This document shows, piece by piece, positions 7,287 through 24,815 of a DNA stretch of 64,000 bases; position 1 is the first letter of the stretch; each line of letters begins with the position of its first letter. Origin of the DNA: Candidatus Omnitrophota bacterium (lineage in GTDB: Bacteria; Omnitrophota; Gorgyraeia; Zapsychrales; Fredricksoniimonadaceae); assembly GCA_903944345.1 (NCBI GenBank), contig CAJARJ010000009.1, positions 65,875-129,874 on the forward strand, written 5' to 3'. The notes beneath the pieces were generated by a model. The model saw only the letters and a program-made list of their open reading frames with translations, did no database searches and was not told the origin of the DNA. The translations under genes were made by a program, and so were the position numbers.

Positions 7287-7885
7287 CTACCGTCTTTTCT
7301 TTTTGGTGTCCACAACCCCGGGCGCTGATTTTACATGAGCTTTAATTAAATTCAAAATTTCGGTATTGCCCCTGCTTGTGGCCAACGACAGCGGCGTTGC
7401 TCCATTGTCCATCTTTGCGTTGACATCAGCTCCGTTTTGCAGCAGCATCCTGGCAACCTCGACATGCCCCTGCTTGCGCCCCTTAAAGCAGGCAAAATGC
7501 AAGGGAGTTGCCCCGTCCTTGGCTCTAGCGTTCACCATTGCACCACGATCAAGCAGCATCCTCGCGGCCTTGGTCTGGGCCTGAGAAGCCGCAACATGCA
7601 AAGGCGTTCCATCATTACCATTCGTAACATCTATTTTAACATGATACTCATCCAGAAGAACTTTAACCACTTCCAATTGTCCCCGCCCGACAGCCCAGTG
7701 TAGCGGCGTCTTGCCCTGTTCATCCTTGCTGTACAGCAGCGACTGATCATGATCCTGATCCAGTAATGTTCTAAGCAAGGTAACATCACCGCTTTTGGCG
7801 GCTTCATGAATAGGCTCCGAAAAAGAAATCCCAGGCGCCAGCGAACAGCACAATAGGATGAGAACAAGAGAGAATAAACTTTTCA
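7287..7885 (-). CDS. Secreted ankyrin-repeat protein
   Basis: At least four ANK repeats are present (G.TPLH.A....L.VV.LL). I trimmed the start to GTG at 7885, which has an AGGAG Shine-Dalgarno; this gives a signal-peptide-like N-terminus (VKSLFSLVLILLCCSLA). Confidence 0.7.
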
Positions 7886-8015
7886 CAAGGACTCCTTTCC
7901 TGACTCGATGATTTGCTGCTATTATAATGCGCAATAAAGCCTCAGAATATATTTCTTTACAAAATTTTATGTTCCAGACTTCTCTACATGGAACAAACAA
8001 TAAAGGAGTTCAGCA

Positions 8016-8762
8016 ATGAAACCTGTCAACGTCGGGATTACGGGAGCCGCCGGAAACATCGGAACCACTCTGCAGGAAGGCCTGGCTCGGGATTATTCTT
8101 TATCTCTTTATGACACAAAAGAGATTTTAACAGCCCCCGGTGCCAGATTTATAAAAACTAATCTAAGCGAAGAAACCACCCTTCACGGTCTTTTTGACGG
8201 TCTTGATGCACTTATTCACCTGGCCGGCAACCCGCGCCCTGATGCTCCCCGGAAACAAACCCTGCAAAACAACTTTCTCGCCACCAGCCTTGTGTTTGAA
8301 GAGGCCCGCCGCGCCGGAATTAAAAAAATCGTTTTTGCAAGCAGCAATTTCTACCATGAAAATGATCTTGCCCAAACACTCCACAATCCCAACCGGGGAT
8401 TGATCACTCTGGATGCGCCCCCCAGCCCCGTCTGCCTTTATGGCGAATCAAAAGTTTATGGAGAGAACCTGGGCCGACATCTCTCTTATACAGGTGGTTT
8501 AAAGTTTGCCGCTTTAAGAATCGGATGGACGGTTCCGCAGGACACCCCAAGACCATATGACAGTCCTTATATGCGGGCTGTATTTTGCAGCAAAAGGGAT
8601 CTGGTGCAGGCTTTTGTAAAAGCACTGGAAGTTGACACAGATTTTATCACTGCTTTTGCTGTCAGCAACAATTCCCGGGCAGTATTCGATCTGGATGAAA
8701 CCAGAAAAACTCTTGGCTTTATCCCCCAGGACAATGCCGAAAACTATTTCAGGAAAGACTAA
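8016..8762 (+). CDS. NAD-dependent epimerase/dehydratase family (SDR) protein
   Basis: Rossmann motif VGITGAAGNIGT at the N-terminus; 248 aa. Confidence 0.7.
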   Translation: MKPVNVGITGAAGNIGTTLQEGLARDYSLSLYDTKEILTAPGARFIKTNLSEETTLHGLFDGLDALIHLAGNPRPDAPRKQTLQNNFLATSLVFEEARRAGIKKIVFASSNFYHENDLAQTLHNPNRGLITLDAPPSPVCLYGESKVYGENLGRHLSYTGGLKFAALRIGWTVPQDTPRPYDSPYMRAVFCSKRDLVQAFVKALEVDTDFITAFAVSNNSRAVFDLDETRKTLGFIPQDNAENYFRKD

Positions 8763-9427
8763 CCCTTCCGCTGATGCCCGTTAAAAAGAAATGAAAACAT
8801 AAAATAAAGGGCGATCAGAAAATACAGTGTAAAAGCCAGCCCCGTGCTGACAAAAGCCAGAAAAGCGGCCACAAGATAGGCCACCGGTCCAAACAAGAAC
8901 GCGGCAACAATAGCCTTGCGATATGCGGGCAACGGAATGCCTTCCTTCAAAATCTTGCAATCGAAAATACCATACCATCTGACAGCCACCAATGCCCCAC
9001 CGGTCAAGGCCATCACCACTCCGTAAAAAGCCACGGCCAGAGGATTCTGTGGATAATCGCCTACAAGCGCAGTGGGGAAAGGGATAAACGAAACAAACAA
9101 CAGTACAAATACATTCAACCAGAACAGAATAATATTAAATCCACGAAAACTGTCAAAGATGCGATGATGATTCACCCAAACAATACAAACTGTCAAAAAA
9201 CTGATGATCCAGCTCAAGAATTTTGGCAGAAGACCCCGTAAAGCATCCAGTAAAACAGACACCGAATCTGCCTGGCCGATATGAGGAACCTTGATCTCCA
9301 GGATCAGCAGCGTGACAATAATGGCAAAAATACCATCGCTAAAAGCCTCCACACGGCTTTTGGTCAGTTCACCATAACGAAAAGTTTTCTGATCCGCCCT
9401 ATCGGCTGATAAATGTTCCGCTGCCAT
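8759..9427 (-). CDS. DUF1211 / TMEM175-like membrane protein (putative K+ channel family)
   Basis: RVEAFSDGIFAIIVTLLILEI signature, with multiple TM segments. Confidence 0.55.
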   Translation of the reverse strand: MAAEHLSADRADQKTFRYGELTKSRVEAFSDGIFAIIVTLLILEIKVPHIGQADSVSVLLDALRGLLPKFLSWIISFLTVCIVWVNHHRIFDSFRGFNIILFWLNVFVLLFVSFIPFPTALVGDYPQNPLAVAFYGVVMALTGGALVAVRWYGIFDCKILKEGIPLPAYRKAIVAAFLFGPVAYLVAAFLAFVSTGLAFTLYFLIALYFMFSFLFNGHQRKG

Positions 9428-10113: not shown

Positions 10114-10899
10114 TTACTTGCCTGGAACAGAATCCGCAATGGTCATATTATTAATCACGCTCTTCACGCCATTGACATCTGCCACCAACTTGCCGACCAA
10201 AACCTTTTCGGCATCGTTCTTGGCAACCCCGCTAACAGTTACAATACCATCGACAACGGCCACCTTGGTATTCACAGCACTGGTCGAATGATGCGACAAG
10301 AGTGCCACCTTAACCTGGGCGACAATAGACGCATCATCAATCTTTTCACCCAACGTCTGCCCGCTGCTCGCCGGAATATTAGCCAAAGTCATCTCATTCT
10401 TGACATTCTTGACACCGCTTACATCTTTGGCATATTCTCCGGCCAAATCCTTCTGGGCCTGCGATGCAGCTTCACCTTTAAGTGTCACTACCCCGTCTTT
10501 AACCTCAACCAGCGTCTTGAAAGCATTGACGTTGGGATGGAACAAAAGAGTAGTTTTAACTTTCATACCGATCCAGCCATCCGAATTCTCGGCAGGACTG
10601 TCCCCTTTAAGAACCAGCTGATTATCCACGCTCTTGACACCCGGCAAATTTGCCACCGTTTCCTGTGCTAACGATTTGTGAGACTCTTGTGTAACGCTAC
10701 CAGTCAAAGTAACCACCCCGTCTCTGGACCGAGTAACAACCGAATCATCCTTAAGATATGTTCTATAAACATACGACTCCTGAGCCGTTGACTCAATCCG
10801 GCTGTCCGTCTCAGAAGCGAAAGCACCAAATACAAACGAGCCACTGCACAACACAACAGCCGCGATTGCTGTAAACGACTTCGAATAATTAGTTTTCAT
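10114..10899 (-). CDS. BON-domain periplasmic protein (OsmY-like, 3-4 BON repeats)
   Basis: Repeated VVTL.G.V......LA...V.N.PGVKSV.N.L blocks. I trimmed the start to ATG at 10899, which has a GGAAGG Shine-Dalgarno and a signal peptide. Confidence 0.7.
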   Translation of the reverse strand: MKTNYSKSFTAIAAVVLCSGSFVFGAFASETDSRIESTAQESYVYRTYLKDDSVVTRSRDGVVTLTGSVTQESHKSLAQETVANLPGVKSVDNQLVLKGDSPAENSDGWIGMKVKTTLLFHPNVNAFKTLVEVKDGVVTLKGEAASQAQKDLAGEYAKDVSGVKNVKNEMTLANIPASSGQTLGEKIDDASIVAQVKVALLSHHSTSAVNTKVAVVDGIVTVSGVAKNDAEKVLVGKLVADVNGVKSVINNMTIADSVPGK

Positions 10900-11144
10900 A
10901 AAACACCTTCCGTTAATTAAGTTTTGTGCCTTTAACAATATGCACATATCTCGATGCTTCCTTATAGTAAAACACCGACCATAGAAATCACTCCAACTCC
11001 TTTCCAATGCCAAGGTTGGCGCCCTTAGACATTGCGCGCATTATTCCTTTATTTCCTTATAGAATGATTCTAGTTGTCTATAAAAAGAAAACAATTGAAC
11101 CGGGGTATAACAGGCCTTGTGACCCGTCTTGAATGGGGGAAATA

Positions 11145-12125
11145 TCACGCCTCTATCAACTCAACAAGCCTGGGATAAATCACTGCGATTCTTTGGTAGG
11201 GCTGCTCGGGGTCAATCAAATCATGCAAAACACCTAAACTTCTATCGAATTCAAAACGCGTAATTCTTACACCGTTATGTTTCTTCCAGTTATCAATCAC
11301 CTTTGCAAAAATCCTGTCATTCACCGATTCATCTAGCGCATTGGCAACTACAAGAATGTCCTGCGTTTTGGGTGCCAGTCTGCTGGCATCTTTAATCACG
11401 AACCAGCCCAAAAGCATGATTTGAGCCAACCCTCTGGTTGAAAAACGATAGTACGCAGAAGTCGGCCCCAAAAGCTCCTTCTTTTTCTCATTACTCCACC
11501 ACAAGAACATATCAGGCAGGATCAGCAAGAAATTGATAGCCAGCTTCAAGCAACTGACGGGCAGCATCTTCCATCCCCAAAACGGCGATATTATAACCGC
11601 TTTATCGACATCACCCCTGTTCTGCGCAATCCAACAGGCCATGTTTGCCCCCATAGACAAACCGGCGACAATAACATGCCGGCCCAGTCCCCGGGCAATA
11701 TCCACAGATTCATCTGATAATTCGATCAATTCCGACACTGTCAGTCTGGAGTAATCTTCAGTCATTCGATCCTTGAGGCCATGATGTGGTACCCGGGGAA
11801 TCAAAACATTATAACCCTTATTGTAAAAGATCTCCCCCAGGGCCCTAAATTGTCGCGGGCTGTTTGTCCCTCCATGAAAAAAGACAATAACGCGCCCGAC
11901 CCGCTTGCCGTGAGTCAGAAAGACAAGATGTCCATCCGAAGAAACCTCATCCCCGTCGACATTGCGTAAATCATCAATACGCCTTACGCTTTCCTGATAA
12001 CTTCTCGATGGCACAGTTCCTGAAACGGGAGAATCTACCCGTAACAGTTTTGAGAATAAAGTCCTGAATTCATTAAATATTGACATCACGGCTTTCAGAA
12101 TGTTTCCTTGAATCTGTTGAGACAT
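11145..12125 (-). CDS. Alpha/beta-hydrolase (esterase/lipase-like)
   Basis: FFHGG oxyanion motif and GLSMG nucleophile elbow. Confidence 0.65.
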   Translation of the reverse strand: MSQQIQGNILKAVMSIFNEFRTLFSKLLRVDSPVSGTVPSRSYQESVRRIDDLRNVDGDEVSSDGHLVFLTHGKRVGRVIVFFHGGTNSPRQFRALGEIFYNKGYNVLIPRVPHHGLKDRMTEDYSRLTVSELIELSDESVDIARGLGRHVIVAGLSMGANMACWIAQNRGDVDKAVIISPFWGWKMLPVSCLKLAINFLLILPDMFLWWSNEKKKELLGPTSAYYRFSTRGLAQIMLLGWFVIKDASRLAPKTQDILVVANALDESVNDRIFAKVIDNWKKHNGVRITRFEFDRSLGVLHDLIDPEQPYQRIAVIYPRLVELIEA

Positions 12126-14173
12126 ATTCTCATAAACTGATCCGGAAAAACGTCAAACATCTTTTCGGCATGACCACCATTTGCCATAACCTTCAGAGCC
12201 TTGGGGTGCCGTGCTTTATCGAACAACAGCCGAGTATAACTCAACTTAACAAGCGAATCTTTGCCCCCATGCAGAAACAACACTGGCGTGGGCGCGATTT
12301 TGTCAACGACATCACCCGGGGGAAGCTTTTGCAAAGCCGGACTGCCCGGGCTGACCGCCTCCTCATCTTTGCCAATCTCTAAATTATGCTTGAGATCTTC
12401 CTCCATATCTTTCTTCCAATAATTATAATTAATACTTCCCAGATCGGACGGAGAGCTGACAGCTATAACACTGTCAATATTCTGATGAAAACTTGCTTCA
12501 ATCAAAGTTACGGCCGCGCCCAGTGAAAAGCCGATCACTCCAATTTTTTTATACTTATTCTCTCGGGCGTAAGCAGTAATAGCTCGCAAATCCTTATGCT
12601 CTTGTGCTGTCCATGTAAACACATCACCAATCTTGCCATGTTCACGAAAATCAAAAACAATCACATCGTACTCCCGGCTGAATGCCTCAGCCATCGCTTT
12701 CAACAGGGGCGTGTCCTTGTTTGTGTAAAAGCCGTGCGCAATGACAATGACCCTGGAAAACCCTTTATTAACATGATCAAAGGCAATGCGTTTCCCGTCA
12801 TCGGTCATCACATAACGATTGGCACCTCGCTCCTGTGCAGAAAAGGGCTCCGGCTGAACACTCCCTGAGGCTGTATTGACAATCTTCTCAGGTTCGGTGT
12901 TCCTGAAGTTTCCTTCAAAAATTGAAGTGAATACAGACCGGATATAATTTCTATAAATATCCCACTCGACTTTTATCCTCCAGAAATATAGATACTGTGA
13001 GCTGTTTCTTTTGCCCACAGCGACAGATTTTCGTGATCTGGCCTCCTCATACACAGCCAGCATGCGCTGGGCTGAAAGCTCAATCGTGTATTTCTGTGCG
13101 GTAGCTCTTGCGGAGTGCTTCATTGCCTGCAATTCTTCAGGAGCACAACGTAGTACCGATAACAATGCGTTAACAAAGCTATGCTGATCCATTTCAGCAA
13201 GCAAGCGTCCGTTAAAATGATCTTTAACAACATCCCTGGCTCCCGGAGCATCCAGTGCGACCACCGGCACTCCGGCTGCCATGGCCTCAACAAGAACAAT
13301 CCCTTGTGTTTCGCTCAAGGAGGCAAACGCAAAGACATCCATGGCAGAATATCCATCCACTAGATGCTCGTAATGCAAAACTCCGACCAAATGCAATCTA
13401 CTCTCAAGACCAGCATTCCTGAAGACATCCCTGATCATTGCCTCTGAGGAGCCTTTACCCACAATCAAAGCATGTGCGTTTGGTTCGATTTCCAATAATT
13501 CGACTATAGACGCTACCAGAAAATCCAGATTCTTCTCTGACGCCAGTCTGCCAACATGCCCAATCACAAAAGCAGCACTGGGAATCTGATTTTCTTTACG
13601 AAATCTTTTGCCATCGCCGTTTGAAAAACGCTTCAAATCTACCCCGGTTGGAACGACCTCCATAGGAGTCTTGACCCCCCGTCTAAGCAAGATTTCCTGT
13701 ATGCTTTCACTGGGAACAATCAGGCGATCGACACAATTGGCATAACCAGCCGCAAGCTTGACAATAAATCTTTTTACTCCTTCATTTTGTATCGGCCAAT
13801 CCTGCACGTACTCCTCAAACATTGTGTGATAGGTAAATACCAGCGGAATAGCGTGCTGCCGACTTAAACGTAACGCAAAATCTCCCATAAAAAACGGACA
13901 ATGGCTATGAACAATGTCCGGACTAAATTCTTTCATTAATCGAGTGAGAAGCCGGGAAACCGGAAAATTGACAGAAAAGATGGTCCAGCTGAATTTCTGG
14001 AAGGCGGGCAGACGAATTACCCCTGACTCCTCAACCGGAGCTCCCTGGAAAGTCGGAGTCACTATCAATACTTCATGCCCCAGGGCTTTAAATTCTTCGC
14101 TGAAAGAATGCACCGATTGCTCCAACCCCCCGACAATCGGAAAGTATGTATTGGTCATCATAAGAATTCTCAT
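12095..14173 (-). CDS. Fusion protein: GT4 glycosyltransferase (N) + alpha/beta-hydrolase (C)
   Basis: The N-terminal part is GT4-like (MRILMMTNTYFPIVGGLEQ...EAMAAGVPVVA). The C-terminal part has a GFSLGAA nucleophile elbow and LFLHGGKD. I trimmed the start to ATG at 14173, which has a strong GGAAGGAG Shine-Dalgarno. Confidence 0.65.
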   Translation of the reverse strand: MRILMMTNTYFPIVGGLEQSVHSFSEEFKALGHEVLIVTPTFQGAPVEESGVIRLPAFQKFSWTIFSVNFPVSRLLTRLMKEFSPDIVHSHCPFFMGDFALRLSRQHAIPLVFTYHTMFEEYVQDWPIQNEGVKRFIVKLAAGYANCVDRLIVPSESIQEILLRRGVKTPMEVVPTGVDLKRFSNGDGKRFRKENQIPSAAFVIGHVGRLASEKNLDFLVASIVELLEIEPNAHALIVGKGSSEAMIRDVFRNAGLESRLHLVGVLHYEHLVDGYSAMDVFAFASLSETQGIVLVEAMAAGVPVVALDAPGARDVVKDHFNGRLLAEMDQHSFVNALLSVLRCAPEELQAMKHSARATAQKYTIELSAQRMLAVYEEARSRKSVAVGKRNSSQYLYFWRIKVEWDIYRNYIRSVFTSIFEGNFRNTEPEKIVNTASGSVQPEPFSAQERGANRYVMTDDGKRIAFDHVNKGFSRVIVIAHGFYTNKDTPLLKAMAEAFSREYDVIVFDFREHGKIGDVFTWTAQEHKDLRAITAYARENKYKKIGVIGFSLGAAVTLIEASFHQNIDSVIAVSSPSDLGSINYNYWKKDMEEDLKHNLEIGKDEEAVSPGSPALQKLPPGDVVDKIAPTPVLFLHGGKDSLVKLSYTRLLFDKARHPKALKVMANGGHAEKMFDVFPDQFMRICLNRFKETF

Positions 14174-14208
14174 TGCCTCTCCTTCCGACAAAGACCAATC
14201 ACGCCCGG

Positions 14209-15666
14209 CTACAACCGGTTCTTTAATTCCAGAAGTTCTTTTCTTGCGGCCATACATATCGCACTATAGGAATCCTGCGCCCCCATCAATCGTCCATCCT
14301 TTTCCATATCCCCTGGGAGAAGCGGTTTCCCGAATCTCACCCTGATAGGGTGACGTTTGGGATACTTTACCGAACTGGCCCACGCTTCATGAGCCCCTTC
14401 AATAGCGACAGGTACAAGTTGAGCACCGCTTTCAAGAGCCAAAACCCCAAAACCTTTCTTGAAGCGGCCGATTTTCCCGGTCGTGCTGCGCAACCCTTCC
14501 GGGAAATAACACAAACCTTTCCCTCGTTTTAAAACCAGAAAGCAGCTGCGCAAGGCCTCGAGAAAATGGGTGGAGAAATCAAACGGAATAAATCGTCCCA
14601 TTTTTACTAAATTTCTTAAGACTCGGGACTTCACAAACGGCCTGAAGAAATAGGGCCCGAAAACAAAATAGAAAATCTGAAAGACCGGCCTGCGCGGCAA
14701 ACACGCGGCAATCGCCGGGCCATCAAGAAAGCTCGAATGATTGGCATAAAGAATATAAGCCCCTTCTTTGGGCACATTATCCGCCCCCTCACTTTTGATA
14801 CTAAAAAACAGTCTAAAAAGCAGACAATCAACAGCCGTTAAAGTAAATCGGAACAGCCAGGCGAAATAACCCGTACCCAGTTCGATCATTTCCCATGTTT
14901 CCTGATTTGGCGGCACACTTAAATTATTATTCCAGTAACCGGACCCAGAAGATATCCGCTGTCTCTTTGAAGCGATTATTTCAGGCGACTTAAGCGCGGA
15001 CTCCAGCTCCCGCAGCAGCTCTCTTACACTGAAGGATCTCGACACCGCCTCATCTTTTATGTCCGAACCAAACGCCAACTCGAGGCGTGATACAAGCTCT
15101 ATTCTGCCCAGAGAATCTATACCCAGATCAAGCTCCAGCGAATCCTCAAGCATGATCGGCCTGATAATCCCGCACTGCTCTTTCAGGCATTCCAGAACTT
15201 TTATCCCTTCCTCTGACCGCAAAAGCCCGGAATCACTGGCTAAGGCTTCTCCTGAGCCCGGAAGGGCCCCCTCGATTCCCGCGATGACTCTGGGCTCATA
15301 AATTTCCCTGACAGCATATCTTTCCAGCTTGCCAAAGAAATTGTGCGGCAAATCCTCGAGCGTAATGGTAAAGCCTTTGAGTCTTTTATAGACAGGCAAA
15401 GAAAGCGAGACATTGTCGAATCTCTCCTTAAGGACAGAACGCAAATTGACCTCGCCAAATTCCCTGAAACTATCCAGATCCGGCTGTATGACTGCCCAAA
15501 GCACCCTGGATTTCCTAACCCCATCCATTCCCGGGACTCCGAAAACACACATCTCTTTAACCGGAGCCATTTGGGTATAGACCGCCTCGATCTCCTCCGG
15601 ATAAATTTTCTCCCCCGGGTTCAACCTGAATGCTTCAATATATTTGCCCACAGGTCTCTCTGTCAT
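14209..15666 (-). CDS. Fusion protein: AMP-binding C-terminal subdomain + acyl carrier (PP-binding) domain + PlsC/LPLAT acyltransferase
   Basis: The N-terminal ~120 aa resemble only the C-subdomain of adenylate-forming enzymes (GEKIYPEEIEAV...GKLERY). An LGIDSL phosphopantetheine site follows. The NHSSFLD (HX4D) acyltransferase motif is present. The gene overlaps the upstream gene by 1 nt (TAATG). Confidence 0.6.
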   Translation of the reverse strand: MTERPVGKYIEAFRLNPGEKIYPEEIEAVYTQMAPVKEMCVFGVPGMDGVRKSRVLWAVIQPDLDSFREFGEVNLRSVLKERFDNVSLSLPVYKRLKGFTITLEDLPHNFFGKLERYAVREIYEPRVIAGIEGALPGSGEALASDSGLLRSEEGIKVLECLKEQCGIIRPIMLEDSLELDLGIDSLGRIELVSRLELAFGSDIKDEAVSRSFSVRELLRELESALKSPEIIASKRQRISSGSGYWNNNLSVPPNQETWEMIELGTGYFAWLFRFTLTAVDCLLFRLFFSIKSEGADNVPKEGAYILYANHSSFLDGPAIAACLPRRPVFQIFYFVFGPYFFRPFVKSRVLRNLVKMGRFIPFDFSTHFLEALRSCFLVLKRGKGLCYFPEGLRSTTGKIGRFKKGFGVLALESGAQLVPVAIEGAHEAWASSVKYPKRHPIRVRFGKPLLPGDMEKDGRLMGAQDSYSAICMAARKELLELKNRL

Positions 15667-18347
15667 TAATCTGCCCCATATTTCAGTTCATATAAATTCG
15701 TTCCCGGAAGAATTCTTTCCTTTTTAGAACCGGGAAAATGAATGTCAATCGCTGGCTCTTTCCCTTGCAGCCATTGCCCTTTCCACTCAACAAGGCTATT
15801 TCGCTTGAGGGGGCTGATTGTGATGTGGATATCACCAAAACTTGTAGGGGCCGGACCAAACGCAAGCGTCTGATTTTTATCCAGCCATATTCGGGGAACT
15901 CCTGAACACAAAATAAGCCCGTTGCCTTCTTCCCTAACAAAACAGTTGCGAATCATCAGGACCCATTCTGCTGCAGCCCAGACGTGCTGTCCGTCTCCCA
16001 TGCATCCGCCACCCGTGCGAGGATGAATGGATTCGGGCCACTGCCCTGTTGGAGACGCAAATTTTGCTACCGCGGCCATTAATGCAAAATATTCAGGATT
16101 CCCGGAACGCAAAAGCACCTGAGCCAAATGCAGAGACAGATAAGGATTGATCCCTGAATGAGTCATGTCATGAAAGAAGGCGCCAGAAACCAAACAGTTC
16201 TTCATTAAATAATCCGCTGTATTCGACATCCTGGGATCATTCGACTCTACAATACGAAGAGGATAGCTGGCCGCCAATGAACCTATCGCCCCGGAATCCA
16301 TGCGCCGATAAGGAGACGCGGGGATTGCTGGGCGATTCAAACGTTTCGCCACACTTTCCAGGCTTCGATCAATACTCTGCATTAAGGCCCGCGATTCGAT
16401 CTCGAAATAAGAAGCCTGATTATTATCGTTATATTTAGCAGACAAAAAAGCCGCACTTCTTAACCCTGCGACACACCAGTAGTCATCCCAATAATAAAAA
16501 TCATTTGGCCCCAGATGCTCGGCGCTAAATCCCGATGGCAACAAACCAGAATGCGGCGATAACAAATTATCGGGTAAACGCTTCTGACATATCCAGCGAC
16601 CGGCTTTATTGATCGATTCTTTCCACTCTTCGGGTGGAGCATTGCCTGTCATTTCACAATACTGCTGCATAATCCACAAGGCTTCTCCGTTAGAGTCCCA
16701 CTCCCCTTCCTGCGAAAGAAAATATCCCTGTAACGTCTGTCGGTCGCGGAAACAATCCAGAGCCCGGCGCACACGATCTTTCAGTCCGGCACACAACAAG
16801 GCCTTTAGAATAAAAGCCGCATCACGAAACCAGAACCTCCGGTAAATATACGGCCCCGGATAAACTTCCCTGGGAGAATGCAAGATCATGGTGCGAATTG
16901 CGGCTTCGTAAAGAAACTGGAAATGCTCATCGGGAACCTTAAGCAAACACTCACCCTGAAGACTGGCGGCCCAGGCTGTCCGGGCCATCTGTGCATCTTC
17001 CACACAGGCATTATTCCTGGTCCCTTTATTCTCTACTAACGGCACCGTAAGCGCTATCTTCCGTGCCTGCCCCGCTTTCAATTGATATATTACCGCCGCA
17101 GAAGCCATGCCAACTCGACAGCAAACAGCGTTCCTCTCCTCCTGAAACGCCAAACGAGCATAAACATCACCATGTTCATAACATGAAAATGCCCATTGAT
17201 CCGGAATTATGTCCCAATAGAGAGAGCTGTTCTGATTGACCTGCCAACCTATCCGGCCTTTCAATATGGCAATATCGTAAACAAGGCTCAATCCTTCCGG
17301 ATTGTAGGGCCGTAAAGCAATCACAAGTTTAGCGTCCTCATCTGTCCGGCCTTCAACCAGGATATGACAAACAGGTGACTGCGTCCCGCCTAAAACCTGA
17401 ACTTGGGTTATAAGCACCAGGCTCTCAAATCTGGATTCCGTAACAACGCAAAGACCTTTGTCCATGATCAATTTTTGTGAACACCCTGACAACCGGGAAG
17501 GAATCAAGGGCTCCCCCTTCCCGGGAATGATCCAGAAGTCCAGTGACCAACTGTCAAAATAGGGCGTTACCAGTCCGCGTGGATCAACCAGTGGATATTC
17601 GGTGCTGTCAGGAATGCCCAGAGCCGTCCAATTGCGATGGGTAAGATTAATCTGCGTTAACGAAAAGGACCGAGGTATAAACGCTTCGTTGAGCGGGTCA
17701 TATTGACATTCCACCCAGTATGGCCAGACCCAATCCAGATTATGCTGAATGGCCAGACTGTTCATCAGTCCGCGCGCGTGCAGAACAACTCCGGAGCGCA
17801 CCAACTCCAGCGGAGCCGGAACCTCGGAAGGCTGCATAAAATTCTGCAACTGAAACAGTATCTTGAACGGATCAGGAAAGCCTTGTCGGCGTGCCGCGTC
17901 TCTTACAAAGAATTTCCAAGGTATCCATTTCCACCACGTAAAAGAAGTACTCTGACCTATCATCGGGAGAAAAACCCACCATTTATAACCAATATAAACA
18001 AACACTCCTGTTGCTACCGAGGCTGCGATCAAGGCCGGAAGAATCGCTTCGGGCCATACGGCAAGAATGCCGTGATTTGTCAGAAGATTAAGACCTAAAG
18101 CCAGAAAGTTAACAAATATATAACGGCCAGCTTCACCGGACGCTTTCGAGCAATGGCATTGAAATATCCAATGCTTGTTAAACAGATACGCAACAAGCCC
18201 TGCGCATATGAAAGAAATTCCTTTCGCCAGACTGAAAGGAAGGAATTGAAATAAAAGATAATAAAGGCCGGCGTCTGTGGCCCCTACAAAAAAACCGACA
18301 AGACCAAACCGGAATATTTCTGTATGCATATTCATAAAGTACCGCAA
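15666..18347 (-). CDS. GtrA-like membrane domain fused to a large six-hairpin glycosidase-like (GDE_C/GH63/GH15-like) domain
   Basis: The N-terminal ~130 aa are GtrA-family (FGLVGFFVGATDAGLYYLL, with four TM segments). The ~750-aa C-terminal domain has a block typical of (alpha/alpha)6 glycosidases (SPTGQWPESIHPRTGGGCMGDGQHVWAAAEW). Confidence 0.5.
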   Translation of the reverse strand: MRYFMNMHTEIFRFGLVGFFVGATDAGLYYLLFQFLPFSLAKGISFICAGLVAYLFNKHWIFQCHCSKASGEAGRYIFVNFLALGLNLLTNHGILAVWPEAILPALIAASVATGVFVYIGYKWWVFLPMIGQSTSFTWWKWIPWKFFVRDAARRQGFPDPFKILFQLQNFMQPSEVPAPLELVRSGVVLHARGLMNSLAIQHNLDWVWPYWVECQYDPLNEAFIPRSFSLTQINLTHRNWTALGIPDSTEYPLVDPRGLVTPYFDSWSLDFWIIPGKGEPLIPSRLSGCSQKLIMDKGLCVVTESRFESLVLITQVQVLGGTQSPVCHILVEGRTDEDAKLVIALRPYNPEGLSLVYDIAILKGRIGWQVNQNSSLYWDIIPDQWAFSCYEHGDVYARLAFQEERNAVCCRVGMASAAVIYQLKAGQARKIALTVPLVENKGTRNNACVEDAQMARTAWAASLQGECLLKVPDEHFQFLYEAAIRTMILHSPREVYPGPYIYRRFWFRDAAFILKALLCAGLKDRVRRALDCFRDRQTLQGYFLSQEGEWDSNGEALWIMQQYCEMTGNAPPEEWKESINKAGRWICQKRLPDNLLSPHSGLLPSGFSAEHLGPNDFYYWDDYWCVAGLRSAAFLSAKYNDNNQASYFEIESRALMQSIDRSLESVAKRLNRPAIPASPYRRMDSGAIGSLAASYPLRIVESNDPRMSNTADYLMKNCLVSGAFFHDMTHSGINPYLSLHLAQVLLRSGNPEYFALMAAVAKFASPTGQWPESIHPRTGGGCMGDGQHVWAAAEWVLMIRNCFVREEGNGLILCSGVPRIWLDKNQTLAFGPAPTSFGDIHITISPLKRNSLVEWKGQWLQGKEPAIDIHFPGSKKERILPGTNLYELKYGAD

Positions 18348-19256
18348 TCAATCCGCAACGCGTGACCCAGCCTGCGCCCCGCGCAATGTTCTATAATTCT
18401 TATCCCTGTACATCAACATATCTGCTCTTTTGAGCAACTCTTCTATTGTCTGGGGTTTCTGCGGATTGTAATAAAGGATCCCGAGGCTGAATGTCAGCTT
18501 GCGTGGCGAATTGGTGTTATATTTTGTCTTTTCAAGATTTTCTTTCAGTCGCTTGTGCAACGCATCCAGGCTCTCGGACTTTGCTTCCAAAGCAAGTATT
18601 GCGAACTCATCGCCTCCGACTCTGCCAATAACATCCGAACTGCGGAACGTCTTTTTGAGAACATCGCCTGCTGTCACCAGCGCCCGGTCTCCCTCCTCGT
18701 GTCCAAACTTGTCATTAATCTGTTTCATATTATCCAGGTCTGCATAAATTAGAATAAGCCCCCTGCCCGAACGGTTAGACAACTTCAAAAGCTGATTGGC
18801 ATAGATCAAAAACCCCCTGCGATTACTCACGCCTGTCAAAACATCCACAAGTGCAAGCTCCCGCATTGTCACTTCCGCTTTCTTTAACCTGTCAAACTGG
18901 CTGACCATCGGCTTATAAAATAAAATATACAGCGCGGGGGAAAGCAAGACGATAAGCATGACTGAAGCAACTATGGGCATATCCGTCGTATGCAGATCAG
19001 GAAGCAGCATAAACAAATACTTTGCCAATAATCCACATCCCAGTATGGAGAGCGTCAGGACAAAAAGCAGCCTTCGGGGAGTGTACATTCTTTCAAAACT
19101 GTCCGGCCTGCATTTTCTATCGGAGGCACCAGCCGGGTTTAAAGTGGGATGATAACCCTCTTTCTTTGCCATATTAACAGTCTTTTCCTCAACAGCCCGA
19201 CGATAAAGTGTCGGGCTGATCTTGTCCTGAAGGAACCTCAAAACATCAATTCGCAT
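18348..19256 (-). CDS. Membrane-anchored GGDEF diguanylate cyclase
   Basis: An N-terminal TM region is followed by the RVGGDEFAIL active-site motif. Confidence 0.8.
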   Translation of the reverse strand: MRIDVLRFLQDKISPTLYRRAVEEKTVNMAKKEGYHPTLNPAGASDRKCRPDSFERMYTPRRLLFVLTLSILGCGLLAKYLFMLLPDLHTTDMPIVASVMLIVLLSPALYILFYKPMVSQFDRLKKAEVTMRELALVDVLTGVSNRRGFLIYANQLLKLSNRSGRGLILIYADLDNMKQINDKFGHEEGDRALVTAGDVLKKTFRSSDVIGRVGGDEFAILALEAKSESLDALHKRLKENLEKTKYNTNSPRKLTFSLGILYYNPQKPQTIEELLKRADMLMYRDKNYRTLRGAQAGSRVAD

Positions 19257-19307: not shown

Positions 19308-21221
19308 TTATTTATCATCCTTAACAACAAAATCCGCATCAATGACACCTTCATGCCTGCTGGCAGCCGCACTCGCAGAGCTATCCTTATAATTATTTTG
19401 CGTCTTAGCATCCGAATCCATCTTCATTGCGTCTTCTTCAACTGGATCCTTCTGAGACCTGGTGGATTTATACATCCCTTCGGCTAACGAGTGAGTTAAT
19501 TTGCTCAGAGACTCCATACAGGACTTGATGCGGTCAGACGCCTTATCTTTCACTGCCTGTTTGAGTGACTCCAACGCCTTGAATATGTTATCCCGATCAG
19601 ACGCCAAGACCTTCTCGCCATAATCCTTGAGCGCTTTTTCGGTTGAATACACCAGCGCATTGGCCTGATTAACAGCCTCTGCCTCCTCCTTGTGTTTCCG
19701 ATCCGCCTCAGCAAACTTCTCGGCCTCTTTTACCATCTTCTGAATTTCCTGCTCGGAAAGCTTTTTAGGAGATAAAATCCTGATTGACTGCTCCTTACCC
19801 GTGGCCTTGTCTTTGGCCCCCACATGTACGATCCCGTTAACATCGATATCAAAAATCACCTCAATTTGCGGAACTCCACGCGGCGCGGGCGGTATTCCTA
19901 CAAGATCAAACTTGCCCAATTCGGTGTTATCATTGGCCATCGGCCGTTCTCCCTGAAGAACGCGTATCGTTACCGCAGGCTGATTGTCATCAGCTGTCGA
20001 AAATATATTGGTCATTTTGGTGGGAATTGTCGTATTACGGTCAATCATTTTAGTCATGACCCCCCCCATCGTCTCAATGCCAAGGGTCAGTGGAGTTACG
20101 TCAAGAAGAAGAACATCCTTAACCTCTCCCTTGATAATTCCAGCCTGAACAGCCGCACCCAGAGCCACGCATTCCATCGGATCAATCCCGCGTTCAATCT
20201 TCTGCCCGGCTTCTGCCTCGACAAACGCCTGCACAATCGGCATTCTGGTCGGGCCGCCAACCATGATAATTTTGTCAATCTTGATTTGTCCCCCAACTTT
20301 GGCTGACGCATCCTTCAGCGCCTGGCGGATTGGATTCCGACATCTTTCGATAATCGGACCCAGAAGACTTTCCAGTTTTGCGCGATCCAGAGTCTGGATC
20401 ATATGTTTGGGCCCTGAAGCATCCGCCGTGATAAATGGCAAATTAATCTGGGTTTGAACAGTGGATGAAAGCTCTACCTTTGCTTTTTCCGCTGCTTCAC
20501 GCAAGCGCTGAAACGCCATTTTGTCCGCTGAAATATCGATACCTGTCTCATTCTTAAACTCACTGACAACATGTCCAATCAGAATATTGTCCATATCCGT
20601 GCCACCCAGCAAATTATCTCCGCTTGTGGCCAGAACCTCAAACGTTCCGCCTTCTCCCATATCAAGAACAGTCACATCCAGCGTGCCTCCACCAAGATCA
20701 AAAACCATGATCTTCTGTTCTTTACCCACACGGTCAATCCCGTAAGCCAGACAGGCAGCTGTTGGCTCGTTGATTATTCGTAACACTTTTAACCCGGCAA
20801 TCTCACCTGCGTCTTTGGTTGCCTGACGCTGGTTATCATTAAAATAGGCCGGAACCGTAATGACCACACTCTCGACAGTATCTCCAAGATATTTCTCAGC
20901 ATCCGCCTTGATCTTCTGCAAAAGGAAGGCCGAAATCTGCTGAGGCGTATATTCTTTACCAAAAATATTAAATTTGTGATCAGTTCCCATCTTGCGTTTG
21001 GCTGCGTAAACCGTGCCTTGCGGATTGATAGCTGCCTGCCGGTGCGCAGGTTCTCCTACCAACCGCTGGCCATCTTTGGTAAACGCAACAAAAGAAGGAA
21101 ACGCCTTGCCTGAGGCGACGCCTGCGCCTTCTGCAGACGGGATAATAACCGGCCGACCGCCTTCCATGACAGCCGCAGCTGAATTGGATGTACCCAAATC
21201 AATTCCTATAAATCGTGGCAT
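19308..21221 (-). CDS. dnaK: Hsp70-family chaperone (DnaK-like)
   Basis: [10 protein letters not shown] and [13 protein letters not shown] motifs; 637 aa. A short insertion lies near the N-terminus. No grpE or dnaJ is adjacent. Confidence 0.8.
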
Positions 21222-21302: not shown

Positions 21303-21974
21303 CTATTTTGTAGTGGTCACAGTTGTTGTGGTTGTCCTTGTTAGCCTTGGCGCGTACAGGGTTAACGCCTGAGCCAGCCGTTTCCCGTCTTTAACAACAT
21401 ATTCGACCCTCACCATATCGCCCGGCTTGATTCTTAACTGGACAGGCTCCAGCCCGGGACTCTGTCTGACCACAATCTTCCCCGGCTCAAAAACAAAAAA
21501 GGAGAAATTATCCCCTGCTTTTTCAAGGGCTGATGACCTGACAGCCAGAGTCAACGTTCCGGCGTCATTGATGTCCACAACTTCACCATAAGTATTCTGA
21601 TAGACCGACAAAGACTGGGGATCAACTGTAATCTTCTCTACAAACATCTCCTTGCGACCATTGATCATATCAATTGTGACATGTTGGCCAGGTTGTAAAT
21701 CCAGAACAGAGAGCAGTTTGTTGTCAGCAGGATCAGTGACCCGGGTTTCATGCTCGCTAACTCTGTACTCGGTTACTGCCCCTGTCCTTGGCGACGCATC
21801 GGCTTCAAGTTGCAGCTTGCCAGACCTGGTGTCCAGCCAAGTGATTTCACCCGATATGCGTTGCATCTCTTGCGCATTTGAAGCACGAGTAAAGATGCCA
21901 ACTAAAAGAACCGCAAACGTGAGCACAACAATCCTTCTGAAATATTTACAACTCATAATATGAATTCCTTTCAA
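21303..21974 (-). CDS. Secreted hypothetical protein
   Basis: Signal-peptide-like N-terminus (IVVLTFAVLLVGIFTRASNA). No recognisable motifs. Confidence 0.4.
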   Translation of the reverse strand: MKGIHIMSCKYFRRIVVLTFAVLLVGIFTRASNAQEMQRISGEITWLDTRSGKLQLEADASPRTGAVTEYRVSEHETRVTDPADNKLLSVLDLQPGQHVTIDMINGRKEMFVEKITVDPQSLSVYQNTYGEVVDINDAGTLTLAVRSSALEKAGDNFSFFVFEPGKIVVRQSPGLEPVQLRIKPGDMVRVEYVVKDGKRLAQALTLYAPRLTRTTTTTVTTTK

Positions 21975-21990
21975 ATTTTAGACATGTCTC

Positions 21991-22458
21991 TCAACGAATC
22001 AGCGACAAACGTCTGTTCTGGACTTCAGGTAGAACGCTTGCCAGCTGTGCCGGAATATCAGCGTTTAATTCTAATTTGACGACTCTCATGCGCGCCTGCC
22101 CCTGACTTATATCGTAGCCAGTCTGTTCCATGACTATTTTTTCGATATCTTCCAGGCTGGTATTTCCTGGATCAAATTTGACCTCCTGAATGTTCTTTAC
22201 ATCCAGCGAACTACTGGCTGTACCAGGCAAATAAATTGTACCGTTACTAAAATCAACAATATAGGCAATAACGCCAGGAATTATAAAGAACAAAAGCCCT
22301 ACTCCATCCAGAACTGCGACTCCGGCATCAATACGTCCGGATTTCTGTCCCCGGCGTTCAGGATATAGAAGAGTTCCGCACCCGGAAGATACAAAAATAA
22401 ACACCGAGCAAAACAATACATATAAAGTTTTGGTGGAAATCTGACTGATGCCTGTCAT
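21991..22458 (-). CDS. Hypothetical lipoprotein (YceK-like?)
   Basis: Lipobox SSGCGT after a signal peptide, and one predicted TM/amphipathic segment. Confidence 0.4.
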   Translation of the reverse strand: MTGISQISTKTLYVLFCSVFIFVSSGCGTLLYPERRGQKSGRIDAGVAVLDGVGLLFFIIPGVIAYIVDFSNGTIYLPGTASSSLDVKNIQEVKFDPGNTSLEDIEKIVMEQTGYDISQGQARMRVVKLELNADIPAQLASVLPEVQNRRLSLIR

Positions 22459-22693: not shown

Positions 22694-23320
22694 CTAGGGG
22701 TGATTCTCAAGCCTTGCCAGCGCTTCGGCAATTTCAAAGCTCAATAATGCAAAGGCTTTACTTAGGGCCTGAGTCAGACCCGGGTAATCATGCGGAATGA
22801 TCGGCTGCCTGAACTCCGAGCTTTTTATAAGAACAGTTTCTGAGCTTTGCACCTTGATGAGCTGCCACTGCACTACAAGGATCAGGTCTTTTTCCAGTTC
22901 GCTATCCAGTTGAACGATATTTAGCAGCACCTGGTATTTAACCGGCATCGACTGATTCCATGGATAGGCAGCTAATTCTGCCATAGGAAAGACAAGTGAA
23001 AGATTCTCCCTGATCAATCGCTCCAGACCACGATCAAGCGACTCTCCCCAGCGATCTAATTGGGAAAATTTAAGCATTCCATCCTGGTCTTGAGTTACGA
23101 TCTGAGGACGATCCTGATACTCCGGTATTTTTACCGGACCAATGCCGATCACTACGCTAACAGGCATATTTATTAACTTGCTGACTGAATCCCGGCTAGT
23201 GGCCTGTAGTTTATAAAAACGGGGTGTCGGACTGCTGGAAACAGATATGCACCCGCTAAGTAGCAAGGCCAAACATATCCCGTTTATAATCCTAAAGGGA
23301 TGTGTCCTGATCAGTCTCAT
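22694..23320 (-). CDS. PqiC/YmbA-like (DUF330) lipoprotein, ABC-transport auxiliary component
   Basis: Lipobox LLSGC. It lies immediately downstream of the MCE protein. Confidence 0.55.
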   Translation of the reverse strand: MRLIRTHPFRIINGICLALLLSGCISVSSSPTPRFYKLQATSRDSVSKLINMPVSVVIGIGPVKIPEYQDRPQIVTQDQDGMLKFSQLDRWGESLDRGLERLIRENLSLVFPMAELAAYPWNQSMPVKYQVLLNIVQLDSELEKDLILVVQWQLIKVQSSETVLIKSSEFRQPIIPHDYPGLTQALSKAFALLSFEIAEALARLENHP

Positions 23321-23321
23321 C

Positions 23322-24038
23322 TTATTCTCCTTTAGGCAACGCTTTGCCTTTCAAAATCGCTTCCGGATGCTGCTCAAGATATTCAGTCAGAAAACGTAAA
23401 GAACGCATGGACTGTTTTGTCTCCCTGATCATATCCCTGAGGTCATAGAGACTCCCGTGCAAATCACTCGAATTGACCAGTTTGTCCACTCCCCTGGTCG
23501 TTGCCTCGAGATTCTTTGCAATTTCCTTGATCGGTAATTCATTCATAAGATCAAAAATATCCAGAGGCGTAGGAAGCGTGGGCAACTCGGGGTACTCTTT
23601 GAGAATGCCTCGCAATTTTGCCGGCGTATCAGGATACAAATCAAATGAGATCAAAAGCTGTCCAGTCAGGAAACTCTGGACTTCAAGTTGTCCTCGCAGC
23701 CCCAGCGCAATCAGTTTTCTGTCTCCATCCTGTTCGCCGAAACCCGGAGTACCCTTTATACGGCCCTGTTCAATCTCCACAATGACCGGGAGCATCACAG
23801 TCCCGGCCTTCGAGTCATAAATAAGACTGATCTCTTTCACAACCCCAATGCTGACACCGCGAAACATGACCGGCGCTCCAATATCCAGACCTTTCACCGA
23901 ACCATCAAAATACAGGACAAATTTATTCGTACGCCTGAATATTTGCCCGGAACCAAAAGCCACAATAGCTATCAATAAGAACAGAATAGCCACAACCACA
24001 AACAGACCGATTAAGGTTTTATTCGCTGTTTTATTCAT
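23322..24038 (-). CDS. mlaD: MlaD-like MCE-domain protein
   Basis: An N-terminal TM segment followed by the MCE domain (FDGSVKGLDIGAPVMFRGVSIGVV). Confidence 0.75.
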   Translation of the reverse strand: MNKTANKTLIGLFVVVAILFLLIAIVAFGSGQIFRRTNKFVLYFDGSVKGLDIGAPVMFRGVSIGVVKEISLIYDSKAGTVMLPVIVEIEQGRIKGTPGFGEQDGDRKLIALGLRGQLEVQSFLTGQLLISFDLYPDTPAKLRGILKEYPELPTLPTPLDIFDLMNELPIKEIAKNLEATTRGVDKLVNSSDLHGSLYDLRDMIRETKQSMRSLRFLTEYLEQHPEAILKGKALPKGE

Positions 24039-24811
24039 GGTTCTGACTCCTTTGATTCCACCCCTCTTGTCAGAAAACGAACAACCCTGGAATCCGTACT
24101 ATTAGCCAATAAAAACCTCGGATCTCCGGTCGCGATAATTGTTTTACTCTCCGCATCCAGAAATGCGCCATTATTTCCGATTGCAAAAATACTGGCAAGT
24201 TCGTGCGTGATCACAACCACAGTAGCTCCCAAACCGTCTCTCAACTCAAGAATAAGATCATCAAACTTTCGGGCATTGACAGGATCCAGTCCGGCTGACG
24301 GCTCATCAAGAAAAATAATCTGCGGATCAAGCGCTATGGCTCGCGCCAGACTGGCTCTTTTGCGCATCCCTCCGCTTATTCCTGAAGGAAACAAGTCTTC
24401 CTGTCCACTCAAGCCTACCAGCGCCAGCTTAAAGGCAACAAGCTCACGAATCTGGGAAAAGGACAAGCTTGTAAACAATTGCAACGGCAAGGCAACATTC
24501 TCGCCGATCGTCATGGAACTCCACAAGGCTCCGCTTTGATAAAGAATCCCGAAACGGCACAGAATATTCTGCCGACCGCTTTCATCTTCATCCCAGAAAC
24601 TCCTGGCGTAGTACAGGACTTTACCCTTTATCGGAGATTTAAGGCCAATCAAGCTCTTGAGCAAAGTGCTTTTACCGCAACCGCTGACTCCCATAACGAT
24701 AAATATATCGCCTTTATTGACAGTAAAATTTACAGCCCGCAGCACAATATGCTCGTCGTACCCCAAATCAACATCCATAACTTGTATAACGGGCTGTTTT
24801 GCTGGTTCCAT
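24035..24811 (-). CDS. mlaF: MlaF-like ABC transporter ATPase
   Basis: Walker A GVSGCGKST, ABC signature LSGGMRKR and Walker B FLDEP. I trimmed the start to MEPAKQ. Confidence 0.8.
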   Translation of the reverse strand: MEPAKQPVIQVMDVDLGYDEHIVLRAVNFTVNKGDIFIVMGVSGCGKSTLLKSLIGLKSPIKGKVLYYARSFWDEDESGRQNILCRFGILYQSGALWSSMTIGENVALPLQLFTSLSFSQIRELVAFKLALVGLSGQEDLFPSGISGGMRKRASLARAIALDPQIIFLDEPSAGLDPVNARKFDDLILELRDGLGATVVVITHELASIFAIGNNGAFLDAESKTIIATGDPRFLLANSTDSRVVRFLTRGVESKESEP

Positions 24812-24815
24812 AAGC

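Follow-up and report, generated by a model that had tools for sequence, protein, structure and literature searches.

A candidate membrane glycolipid module of Candidatus Omnitrophota built on a widely conserved pair of a glycosidase-fold protein and a GT4 glycosyltransferase

Operons that combine a GT4 lipid synthase, a head-group modifier and a flippase have been described as gpgSDF in Pseudomonas aeruginosa, where the lipid is glucosaminyl-phosphatidylglycerol, and as hexSDF in Clostridioides difficile (PMC12713373). In this work, we analyzed a locus of a Candidatus Omnitrophota bacterium contained in a stretch of 64,000 nucleotides (assembly GCA_903944345.1, contig CAJARJ010000009.1, positions 65,875 to 129,874 of the forward strand; hereafter the window, numbered from its first letter), in which all the protein-coding genes discussed below lie on the minus strand. 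The core of the locus consists of three genes encoding a GtrA membrane domain fused to a glycoside hydrolase-like domain (GtrA::GH-like, 893 aa, 15666-18347), an acyltransferase preceded by the C-terminal subdomain of an ANL enzyme and an acyl carrier protein (ACP) domain (ANL-C::ACP::PlsC, 485 aa, 14209-15666), and a GT4 glycosyltransferase fused to an alpha/beta hydrolase (ABH; 12095-14173 from its likely start, or to 14257 as the longest open reading frame, of 720 aa). Like gpgSDF and hexSDF, the locus joins a predicted cytoplasmic GT4 of lipid type to a putative second enzyme of the sugar head group and to a “flippase-like” membrane protein, and its layout may be considered analogous to theirs. 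However, the described operons use a deacetylase where a GH15-fold protein of 750 aa is found here, and an AglD2/YbhN-type membrane protein in the place of GtrA or DedA, and gpgSDF comprises neither an acyltransferase nor an ACP or an esterase. Furthermore, the GT4 of the window is not an ortholog of the gpgSDF synthase: GlcNAc-phosphatidylglycerol synthase ranks among the top two to four matches of the GT4, at 101-113 bits against a cut-off of 480.

Other known systems resemble single parts of the locus. The best-scoring named family for the GT4, which aligns end to end, is the alpha-monoglucosyl-diacylglycerol synthase (Mgs/alMGS), which is of the retaining GT-B type and carries an EX7E motif, as here. 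This family (NF049988 in NCBIfam) scores 149 bits, where the equivalog cut-off is 400, and it is also the top family for the GT4 of Thiohalophilus (131 bits); judged by that score, and despite the best match, the window GT4 is not an alpha-monoglucosyl-diacylglycerol synthase ortholog. To our knowledge, the known Mgs genes are neither paired with a GH15-fold protein nor fused to hydrolases. With the GtrABC systems the locus shares a GtrA-family four-helix membrane domain (PF04138), but GtrA is here fused to a predicted cytoplasmic GH-fold enzyme and is replaced by DedA in other phyla, and no GtrB-type GT2 or GtrC-type GT-C partner was found in the neighbourhood of the window locus or in 82 related loci. 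PlcP-Agt, which renovates lipids under phosphate stress, pairs a phospholipase C with a GT4 glycolipid synthase; in the proteobacterial version of our cluster, a GT4 is similarly coupled or fused to phosphodiesterase domains (NPP::EEP, a type-I phosphodiesterase joined to an endonuclease/exonuclease/phosphatase domain) that could free diacylglycerol from a phospholipid. The phosphodiesterase families differ, however, PlcP-Agt has no counterpart to the obligatory GH-like partner, and in the window version a putative esterase and an acyltransferase take their place. No description of the gene combination, or of Omnitrophota glycolipids, was found in the literature, and an earlier reading of the locus from the letters alone (the sequence-only reading) had likewise assigned the combination to no named pathway.

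That reading had proposed a five-gene glycolipid or lipid remodelling operon headed by a GGDEF cyclase. The five genes with overlapping or adjacent boundaries are there, as part of six long open reading frames that run head to tail at the coordinates given here, from dnaK (19308-21221) to the gene of a stand-alone hydrolase (ABH326, 326 aa, 11145-12125), and the domain calls of all five were reproduced with the profile databases Pfam and NCBIfam, although AMP-binding_C stayed under its cut-off. We mapped the window domains onto the 82 related loci (designated by L numbers), of which 34 are from Omnitrophota and 75 were evaluable for the GH-like and GT4 genes. The order GtrA::GH-like, ANL-C::ACP::PlsC and GT4 recurs at 60-80% amino acid identity in 23 loci. 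Since the three central genes keep this order at such identities in at least 23 independent genomes, they are a gene cluster conserved across Candidatus Omnitrophota beyond chance. The five genes as a unit did not hold up: the ABH fusion on the GT4 was found in about 10 loci, and an ABH326 ortholog in the cluster only in L001, L007 and L028. Nor does the cyclase head a conserved operon, because only four of the 34 Omnitrophota loci (L008, L020, L022 and L028) have a GGDEF ortholog (59-68% identity) in the vicinity of the cluster, and in only one of them, L020, does it lie directly upstream. Taken singly, the superfamilies are ordinary, and what is conserved is not a five-gene operon with GGDEF at its head. 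Also, other deltaproteobacteria had been named as the place to look for the same order, but all the close relatives that carry a name belong to Candidatus Omnitrophota.

The deeper invariant, which the earlier reading overlooked, is the GH-like gene together with the GT4 gene, recurring in at least six phyla. A GH-like gene is followed by a GT4 gene on the same strand in 70 of the 75 evaluable loci, directly in 45 and after an ACP::PlsC gene in 23. These loci are spread over Omnitrophota, Gammaproteobacteria, Nitrospirota, Desulfobacterota and Planctomycetota. GtrA is fused to the GH-like domain in 30 loci. Without it, the GH-like protein has about 750 aa and is 50-55% identical to the GH part of the window protein, and these GtrA-less proteins are 70-89% identical to one another across phyla. 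Carriers of the GtrA-less form include Gammaproteobacteria, Thiobacillus, Nitrospirota, Nitrospinaceae, Desulfobacterota and Planctomycetota, with Methylobacter, Thiohalophilus and Marinobacter among the cultured gammaproteobacterial ones. The usual layout outside Omnitrophota is DedA/VTT, GH-like, GT4 and an 810-aa NPP::EEP protein; of the 46 loci in which no GtrA is fused, 23 have a DedA/VTT gene next to the GH-like gene and 24 have NPP::EEP, and GT4::NPP::EEP fusions occur in L005, L027, L030 and L043. Extra genes in the Omnitrophota loci encode patatin (10 loci), GH1 (8) and DUF3108 (11) proteins. Apparent DedA::GH fusions of 905-1042 aa (L060, L063 and L076) were rejected as artefacts: the DNA is GC-rich and its frames stay open for long, and the real proteins at these loci start at a W-K-W-L-P-W-R-F motif. 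Control by phosphate starvation was also rejected, since no Pho-box-like site was found upstream of 10 proteobacterial DedA-GH operons, where the best candidates had at least 4 mismatches of 14. Besides, a gene for a B12-binding radical SAM protein, a class that modifies lipids in other bacteria, lies directly upstream of GtrA::GH-like in L010 (8684-9979), L031 and L038.

The first protein of the core begins with a GtrA_DPMS_TM domain (PF04138; 51.5 bits against a cut-off of 26.1; residues 13-126, 17970-18311), which forms four helices in the model of the full-length protein. The remaining ~760 residues have no Pfam match. They open with an aromatic amphipathic segment, WWKWIPWKFF, and the unfused GH-like proteins likewise begin at the W-K-W-L-P-W-R-F motif, without a signal peptide. 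The positive-inside rule, applied to the loop charges, puts both ends of the GtrA domain and the GH domain, as predicted, in the cytoplasm; this topology, together with the aromatic start and the lack of a signal peptide, suggests that the GH-like protein is attached peripherally at the inner membrane face. A full-length model (893 aa, 24 close homologs) reached a pLDDT of 56 and was set aside, and a usable model of the GH part (residues 135-893, 15669-17945) was built from an alignment of 106 sequences. This AlphaFold model (pLDDT 83, pTM 0.87) shows an (alpha/alpha)6 barrel flanked by two beta-sandwiches, one before it and one at the C-terminus, and its top Foldseek match in the PDB is the bacterial glucoamylase 1lf6 of family GH15 (E 1.6e-16, TM 0.54/0.59), followed by GH94 cellobiose/chitobiose phosphorylases, glucodextranase, dextran dextrinase, GH65 phosphorylases and a cyclic-glucan synthase. 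Model and matches thus agree with the “six-hairpin glycosidase-like” guess of the sequence-only reading.

The GH15, GH94 and GH65 enzymes share with the GH-like protein this three-part fold, in which an (alpha/alpha)6 barrel stands between an N-terminal beta-sandwich and a C-terminal beta domain, and the GH65/GH94 fold with its C-terminal beta domain is present in the model. In contrast to these enzymes, the GH-like protein has no Pfam match and is predicted to be membrane-tethered and cytoplasmic; the structural matches (E 1e-16 to 1e-10, TM about 0.5) show only 10-13% identity. Neither the window protein nor two proteobacterial homologs nor nine distant relatives gave a Pfam GH15, GH65 or GH94 match, the nine sampled distant members having no Pfam match of any kind. 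The sole GH15 echo at the sequence level was TIGR01577 (E 1.3e-4, 20.8 bits against a cut-off of 820). The family nevertheless has invariant blocks, namely RFWFRD, SQEGEWDSNGE, GLLPxGFSAEHLGPND.YYWDD.W, RRxD, HSGxNxY and GQWPE..HP.TGGGCMGDG, with invariant acidic residues in WDD, WPE and SQEGEWD, among others. These acidic and aromatic blocks map to the starts of alternate barrel helices in the model, which is where (alpha/alpha)6 enzymes form their active site. Because of this placement, the GH-like protein looks, in the model, like a working enzyme of the GH15/GH65/GH94 kind.

The family is large and has no annotation, a point also missed earlier. The GtrA::GH-like fusion has more than 3000 homologs, of which the best 120 have about 890 aa and 62-69% identity, and among these 120 all the named ones are “GtrA family protein” of Candidatus Omnitrophota. 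Homologs of the GH-like domain are named “hypothetical protein”, or “GtrA family protein” if fused, and GtrA is the only Pfam domain they carry. A profile search of 1.84 billion cluster representatives returned 3291 of them for the GH-like family at E <= 1e-3 and 701 at E <= 1e-30, the family numbering ~3,300 clusters at 50% identity. A search of plasmids gave GH-like relatives of just 23-25% identity, annotated with a “discoidin domain” and in an unrelated context. One of them, on the Methylosinus plasmid pMSC49c (L083, 7191-10064), is a 23%-identical “discoidin domain-containing protein” with a bona fide GH15 gene 3.6 kb away.

In the third protein of the core, the GT4 domain (residues 29-406) scores 126 bits with Glyco_transf_4 and 113 bits with Glycos_transf_1 and has ETQGIVLVE as its EX7E motif; its nearest solved structures are MshA, the lipid mannosyltransferases PimA and PimB', and GlgA. 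A role in defence was considered and rejected, given that the match to the GT4-conflict Pfam family is under the cut-off and all the stronger matches are ordinary GT4 families. The fused ABH domain (residues 503-696; Abhydrolase, 42 bits) carries nucleophile, Asp and His in GFSLG...GGKDS...GGHAE and resembles microbial esterases. ABH326 (Abhydrolase_6, 46 bits; GLSMG...LDES...LHD for the same three residues) is an accessory gene product whose nearest solved structures are thermostable monoacylglycerol lipases (E 1.5e-8). With their motifs and Pfam matches above cut-off, both hydrolases are putative serine esterases or lipases.

The second protein of the core is composed of a relic ANL C-terminal subdomain (15292-15666), an acyl-carrier domain with the motif LGIDSLGRIE (15010-15201) and a PlsC/AGPAT acyltransferase domain (14401-14799) preceded by a hydrophobic membrane-anchoring stretch. 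The Pfam scores are 18.5 bits, under the cut-off, for AMP-binding_C, 32 for PP-binding (cut-off 20.8) and 59 for Acyltransferase PF01553 (cut-off 23), and the PlsC structure of Thermotoga maritima (5kym) matches the last domain at E 5e-11. Among 29 homologs, the ACP serine for phosphopantetheine (GIDSLGR) is invariant, as are HX4D (NHSSFLDG) and FPEGLRS in the PlsC domain; the condition under which the sequence-only reading would have been refuted, a PlsC-like block lacking its HX4D context, thus does not hold. The protein is annotated at JGI as an acyl-CoA/ACP synthetase (ANL), a name that goes with an N-terminal AMP-binding domain. Such a domain is absent from the protein and from the whole window. 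The protein aligns with residues 439-907 of a 907-aa AMP-binding::ACP::PlsC paralogue (37.5% identity), beginning at the hinge, and the A10 (adenylation) lysine varies between K, Q, A and R across the family. More than 120 relatives share the short form, all of ~485 aa and 66-77% identical, and by this constancy of length, together with the invariant ACP serine, HX4D and FPEGLRS, it is not a pseudogene. With the adenylation domain lost, the protein cannot activate fatty acids itself, and its carrier must therefore be loaded in trans.

Full-length AMP-binding::ACP::PlsC proteins of ~900 aa are encoded inside or beside the cluster in L002 (16229-18952), L032 (3802-6531) and L058 (539-3238). The full-length form is the likely ancestor of the decapitated one and a possible partner for loading it in trans. 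Aas, the 2-acylglycerophosphoethanolamine acyltransferase/acyl-ACP synthetase, resembles the short protein in that PlsC is coupled to ACP-dependent acyl transfer, and Aas-type NCBIfam models are the top matches of the PlsC part; its domain order is, however, reversed relative to that of the window protein, which has no N-terminal adenylation domain. Fusions of FAAL-like, ACP and lysophospholipid acyltransferase domains have been mentioned as unexplained, uncharacterised architectures (PMC8460268).

The gene boundaries would suit an operon, with one strand, overlaps or gaps of no more than 51 nt, and a gene order kept among relatives. The largest gap, 51 nt, separates the stop codon of dnaK from the start of the GGDEF gene, as the sequence-only reading had it for its upstream Hsp70 gene. 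The spacing between the GGDEF and GtrA::GH-like genes is 0-18 nt depending on the start codon chosen, the gene callers starting the latter at 18329 (887 aa), and the GtrA::GH-like and acyltransferase genes overlap in an ATGA. The 49-nt overlap between the acyltransferase gene and the longest GT4 open reading frame is probably artefactual: an ATG at 14173, which is probably the true start, sits behind a strong ribosome-binding site (GGAAGGAGAGG), coincides with position 1 of the GT4 models and turns the overlap into a 35-nt gap. Finally, GT4::ABH and ABH326 overlap by 31 nt. An Rfam scan of the window found four tRNAs only, with no riboswitch or other RNA control.

Taken together, these results point towards a module that would synthesise a membrane glycolipid and remodel its acyl chains at the cytoplasmic face of the inner membrane, a reading to which we give about an even chance and whose steps are deduced from families, folds, fusions and neighbourhood. 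It is favoured because the GT4 is of lipid type, lipid hydrolases are fused or adjacent to it, the sugar enzyme is membrane-tethered, and GtrA or DedA, PlsC, patatin, lipase-like ABH and Mla proteins are the neighbours; the Rosetta-stone fusions GT4::ABH (about 10 loci) and GT4::NPP::EEP (four loci) link the components. The lipid or glycolipid theme of the sequence-only reading thus fits best, with the top family of the GT4, ABH326, patatin, NPP::EEP, DedA and the Mla context all in keeping with it. In this module, the GT4, as a retaining GT-B enzyme, would use a nucleotide sugar as donor and attach its hexose to diacylglycerol or a comparable lipid acceptor, giving an alpha-glycosyl lipid. 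The GH-fold domain, held at the membrane by GtrA and the aromatic amphipathic segment, would then process the alpha-linked head group, be it as inverting glycosidase, as phosphorylase or as transglycosylase, and so trim, recycle or extend it, while the GtrA domain here, and the separate DedA protein in other phyla, would bind or flip the lipid. The hydrolase fused to the GT4 would provide or edit the lipid substrate, here as a serine esterase or lipase; elsewhere, the NPP::EEP phosphodiesterase could free diacylglycerol from a phospholipid. Lastly, ACP::PlsC might re-acylate a lyso-lipid or a sugar hydroxyl with the acyl group on its own phosphopantetheine arm, the ACP being loaded by a separate ligase or by transacylation from one of the serine hydrolases. 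A bolder version, which we put forward as speculation and hold to be doubtful, is that the GH15/GH94-fold family is the obligatory GT4 partner in a widespread, undescribed glycolipid pathway of at least six phyla, in which it would be a membrane-bound phosphorylase or transglycosylase rather than a plain hydrolase, and that in Omnitrophota the decapitated acyl-ACP synthetase would perform an ACP-mediated, ATP-independent transacylation.

Several observations weigh against the glycolipid module. Its chief weakness is that the GT4 and the GH-like protein are both predicted to be cytoplasmic, and a synthase and a hydrolase in one compartment look futile; a phosphorylase or transglycosylase role for the GH-like protein deserves attention for this very reason. 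The acceptor of the GT4 could be soluble, since the 149 bits are far from the cut-off of its best family and MshA and GlgA score about like PimA in the PDB. Besides, GtrA relatives are tied to polyprenyl-phosphate sugars and not to glycerolipids. As to the GH-like family, searches of PDB sequences with both profiles returned nothing meaningful, and when the family profile was compared by hhalign with a single bona fide GH15 protein, the probability was 17% and no residues could be mapped. In four Marinobacter loci (L073, L075, L077 and L078), DedA and the GH-like gene occur without an adjacent GT4. Finally, promoter and terminator scans of the locus were at background level and point neither way. 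In the Marinobacter loci, the surrounding genes encode a pair of EamA transporters, an alpha/beta hydrolase and a protein of the YegS-type lipid kinase fold.

Some of these facts would suit other explanations. The GH-like protein and the GT4 might make and degrade a soluble alpha-glucoside or alpha-glucan (a compatible solute, a glycogen-like polymer or a periplasmic oligosaccharide) that GtrA or DedA export and that the acyltransferase, esterase or phosphodiesterase decorate. The GH15, GH65 and GH94 relatives all use soluble sugars (glucoamylase, glucodextranase, and the disaccharide and glucosylglycerol phosphorylases), the GT4 also matches GlgA, sucrose-phosphate-synthase-like proteins and MshA, and halophiles or haloalkaliphiles (Thiohalophilus, Thioalkalivibrio, Marinobacter) are frequent among the carriers; a gene for a BON (OsmY-like) protein comes after the cluster, both in the window and at four other loci, and GlgX and another (alpha/alpha)6 protein are 7-9 kb off. 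We still consider this explanation unlikely: the best GT4 families are of lipid type, with glycogen-synthase models at 54-57 bits against 149, the recurrent partners are lipid enzymes (the membrane-anchored PlsC, patatin, the monoacylglycerol-lipase-like ABH and Mla), the GH-like protein is membrane-tethered through fusion or its aromatic N-terminus, and no conserved sugar-phosphate phosphatase or solute transporter was found in the neighbourhood. A GtrABC-style modification of a polyprenyl-phosphate-linked or envelope glycan, in which the GT4 adds a sugar to an intermediate linked to a lipid, GtrA or DedA see to the flipping or recycling of the carrier lipid, and O-acyl groups of the glycan are put on by the acyltransferase and taken off by the esterase, would account for the fusion of GtrA to the GH-like protein and for DedA taking its position in other phyla. 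GtrA has been implicated in translocation of undecaprenyl-phosphate-glucose, and DedA proteins in recycling of undecaprenyl-phosphate. GT4 families of undecaprenyl-linked glycans (PglJ, WcaL, TuaC) are among the weaker matches. What makes this modification improbable in our view is the lack of any conserved neighbouring gene for a priming phosphoglycosyltransferase, a GT2 polyprenyl-phosphate sugar synthase, Wzx/Wzy, a GT-C transferase or a ligase, together with the presence of a single glycosyltransferase only and the predicted cytoplasmic location of the GH-like domain.

Yet another use for the cluster might be the salvage of host or prey lipids, which would be in keeping with the reduced and host-dependent way of life that has been put forward for many Omnitrophota: glycolipids and phospholipids of foreign origin would be taken apart by lipases, patatin and glycosidases (GH-like and GH1), and PlsC/ACP and the GT4 would use the parts to build the membrane of the cell itself. 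Catabolic partners do occur in the Omnitrophota loci (patatin in 10, GH1 in 8 and ABH326 in 3), the fatty-acid-activating full-length paralogue of AMP-binding, ACP and PlsC domains is found in L002, L032 and L058, an Mla-type lipid transporter is nearby, and an ankyrin-repeat protein is encoded within the window. The GH-like and GT4 genes are, however, equally conserved in free-living Gammaproteobacteria and Nitrospirota, and all the enzymes are cytoplasmic or of the inner membrane, so we think it very unlikely that salvage explains the cluster. That the five genes are mere neighbours with unrelated functions, belonging to no operon or pathway, is hardly credible. It would agree with the poor conservation of GGDEF, dnaK and ABH326 beside the cluster, and the promoter and terminator scans favour neither side, but the three central genes lie almost end to end or overlap, their order is the same in at least 23 genomes, GH-like and GT4 genes go together in 70 of 75 loci across phyla, and repeated domain fusions tie the components to one another.

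Around the core, dnaK and the GGDEF gene are wedged, in this genome, between the usual upstream genes and the core. The GGDEF gene (18348-19256) encodes a membrane-anchored diguanylate cyclase of 302 aa (PF00990, 132 bits; TIGR00254, 134 bits) with an intact active site and an RxxD I-site (RSSDVIGRVGGDEF); as shown above, it is an occasional neighbour outside the conserved core. dnaK adjoins the cluster in none of the 82 related loci, and a reading of the locus as a heat-shock operon was rejected on this count. Both genes may be co-transcribed with the core and yet stand outside the conserved machine. Further upstream, two envelope proteins of 155 and 223 aa (21303-22458) have no annotation and no family matches. 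The first is lipoprotein-like, with a lipobox (VSSGC) and a hydrophobic stretch; the second is of the secreted type, with a signal peptide, a pair of CusF-like beta domains and a poly-threonine tail. The two are kept in 13 and 16 of the 34 Omnitrophota loci, respectively, typically just upstream of GtrA::GH-like. An operon for an Mla-like lipid ABC transporter follows upstream (MlaE, ATPase, MlaD and an auxiliary lipoprotein; 22694-25943), and Mla-like operons are also near the GH-like gene in L018, L031, L034, L072 and L082, which include both locus types. Next come genes, identified by domain calls, for a PAS histidine kinase and a LuxR/GerE-type response regulator (26016-28118); 22-24 of the 34 Omnitrophota loci have orthologs of the two (54-74% and 58-69% identity, respectively) upstream of the cluster and in its orientation. 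Because their orthologs accompany the cluster in most of these loci, the kinase and the LuxR-type regulator are better candidate regulators than the GGDEF protein.

Downstream of the cluster, at 131 nt, lies the gene of a protein with three BON domains (OsmY-like, 10114-11013), whose orthologs are near the cluster in L003, L016, L033 and L034. The rest of this flank encodes a TMEM175-type potassium-channel homologue (8759-9427) and an ankyrin-repeat protein (7287-8000), both from families with a eukaryotic flavour, and, 5-9 kb downstream (2150-6497), a GlgX-type isoamylase of 710 aa and a 606-aa GlcNAc-2-epimerase-like (alpha/alpha)6 protein. At 195-1793, a 532-aa protein fuses an HATPase_c_2 domain (anti-sigma-type kinase), a cyclic-nucleotide-binding domain and a SpoIIE/PP2C phosphatase; its domains suggest a partner-switching regulator whose gate would be a cyclic nucleotide.

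Three points stand out: a very large, strongly conserved family of the GH15/GH94 fold that has no Pfam model, the near-obligatory link between this family and a lipid-type GT4 across phyla, and an acyltransferase that has kept its carrier while losing the activating domain. The decapitated ANL::ACP::PlsC protein is a case of domain loss with retention of the carrier and poses the question, which can be tested, of how that carrier is loaded. Several carriers of the GH-like family can be cultivated, so that the glycolipid hypothesis is open to a direct test. If the proposed module is real, thousands of “hypothetical proteins”, among them those of Marinobacter, Methylobacter, Thiohalophilus and Thioalkalivibrio, would obtain a first functional context. 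With their GH15/GH94 fold and their action at the membrane, the GH-like proteins would then define a candidate for a new family of the CAZy type, and their pathway would stand for a membrane glycolipid, or a route of its turnover, that is absent from current lipid maps. For Omnitrophota, a phylum with almost no experimental biology, this conserved envelope locus would provide a handle on the membranes of its members.

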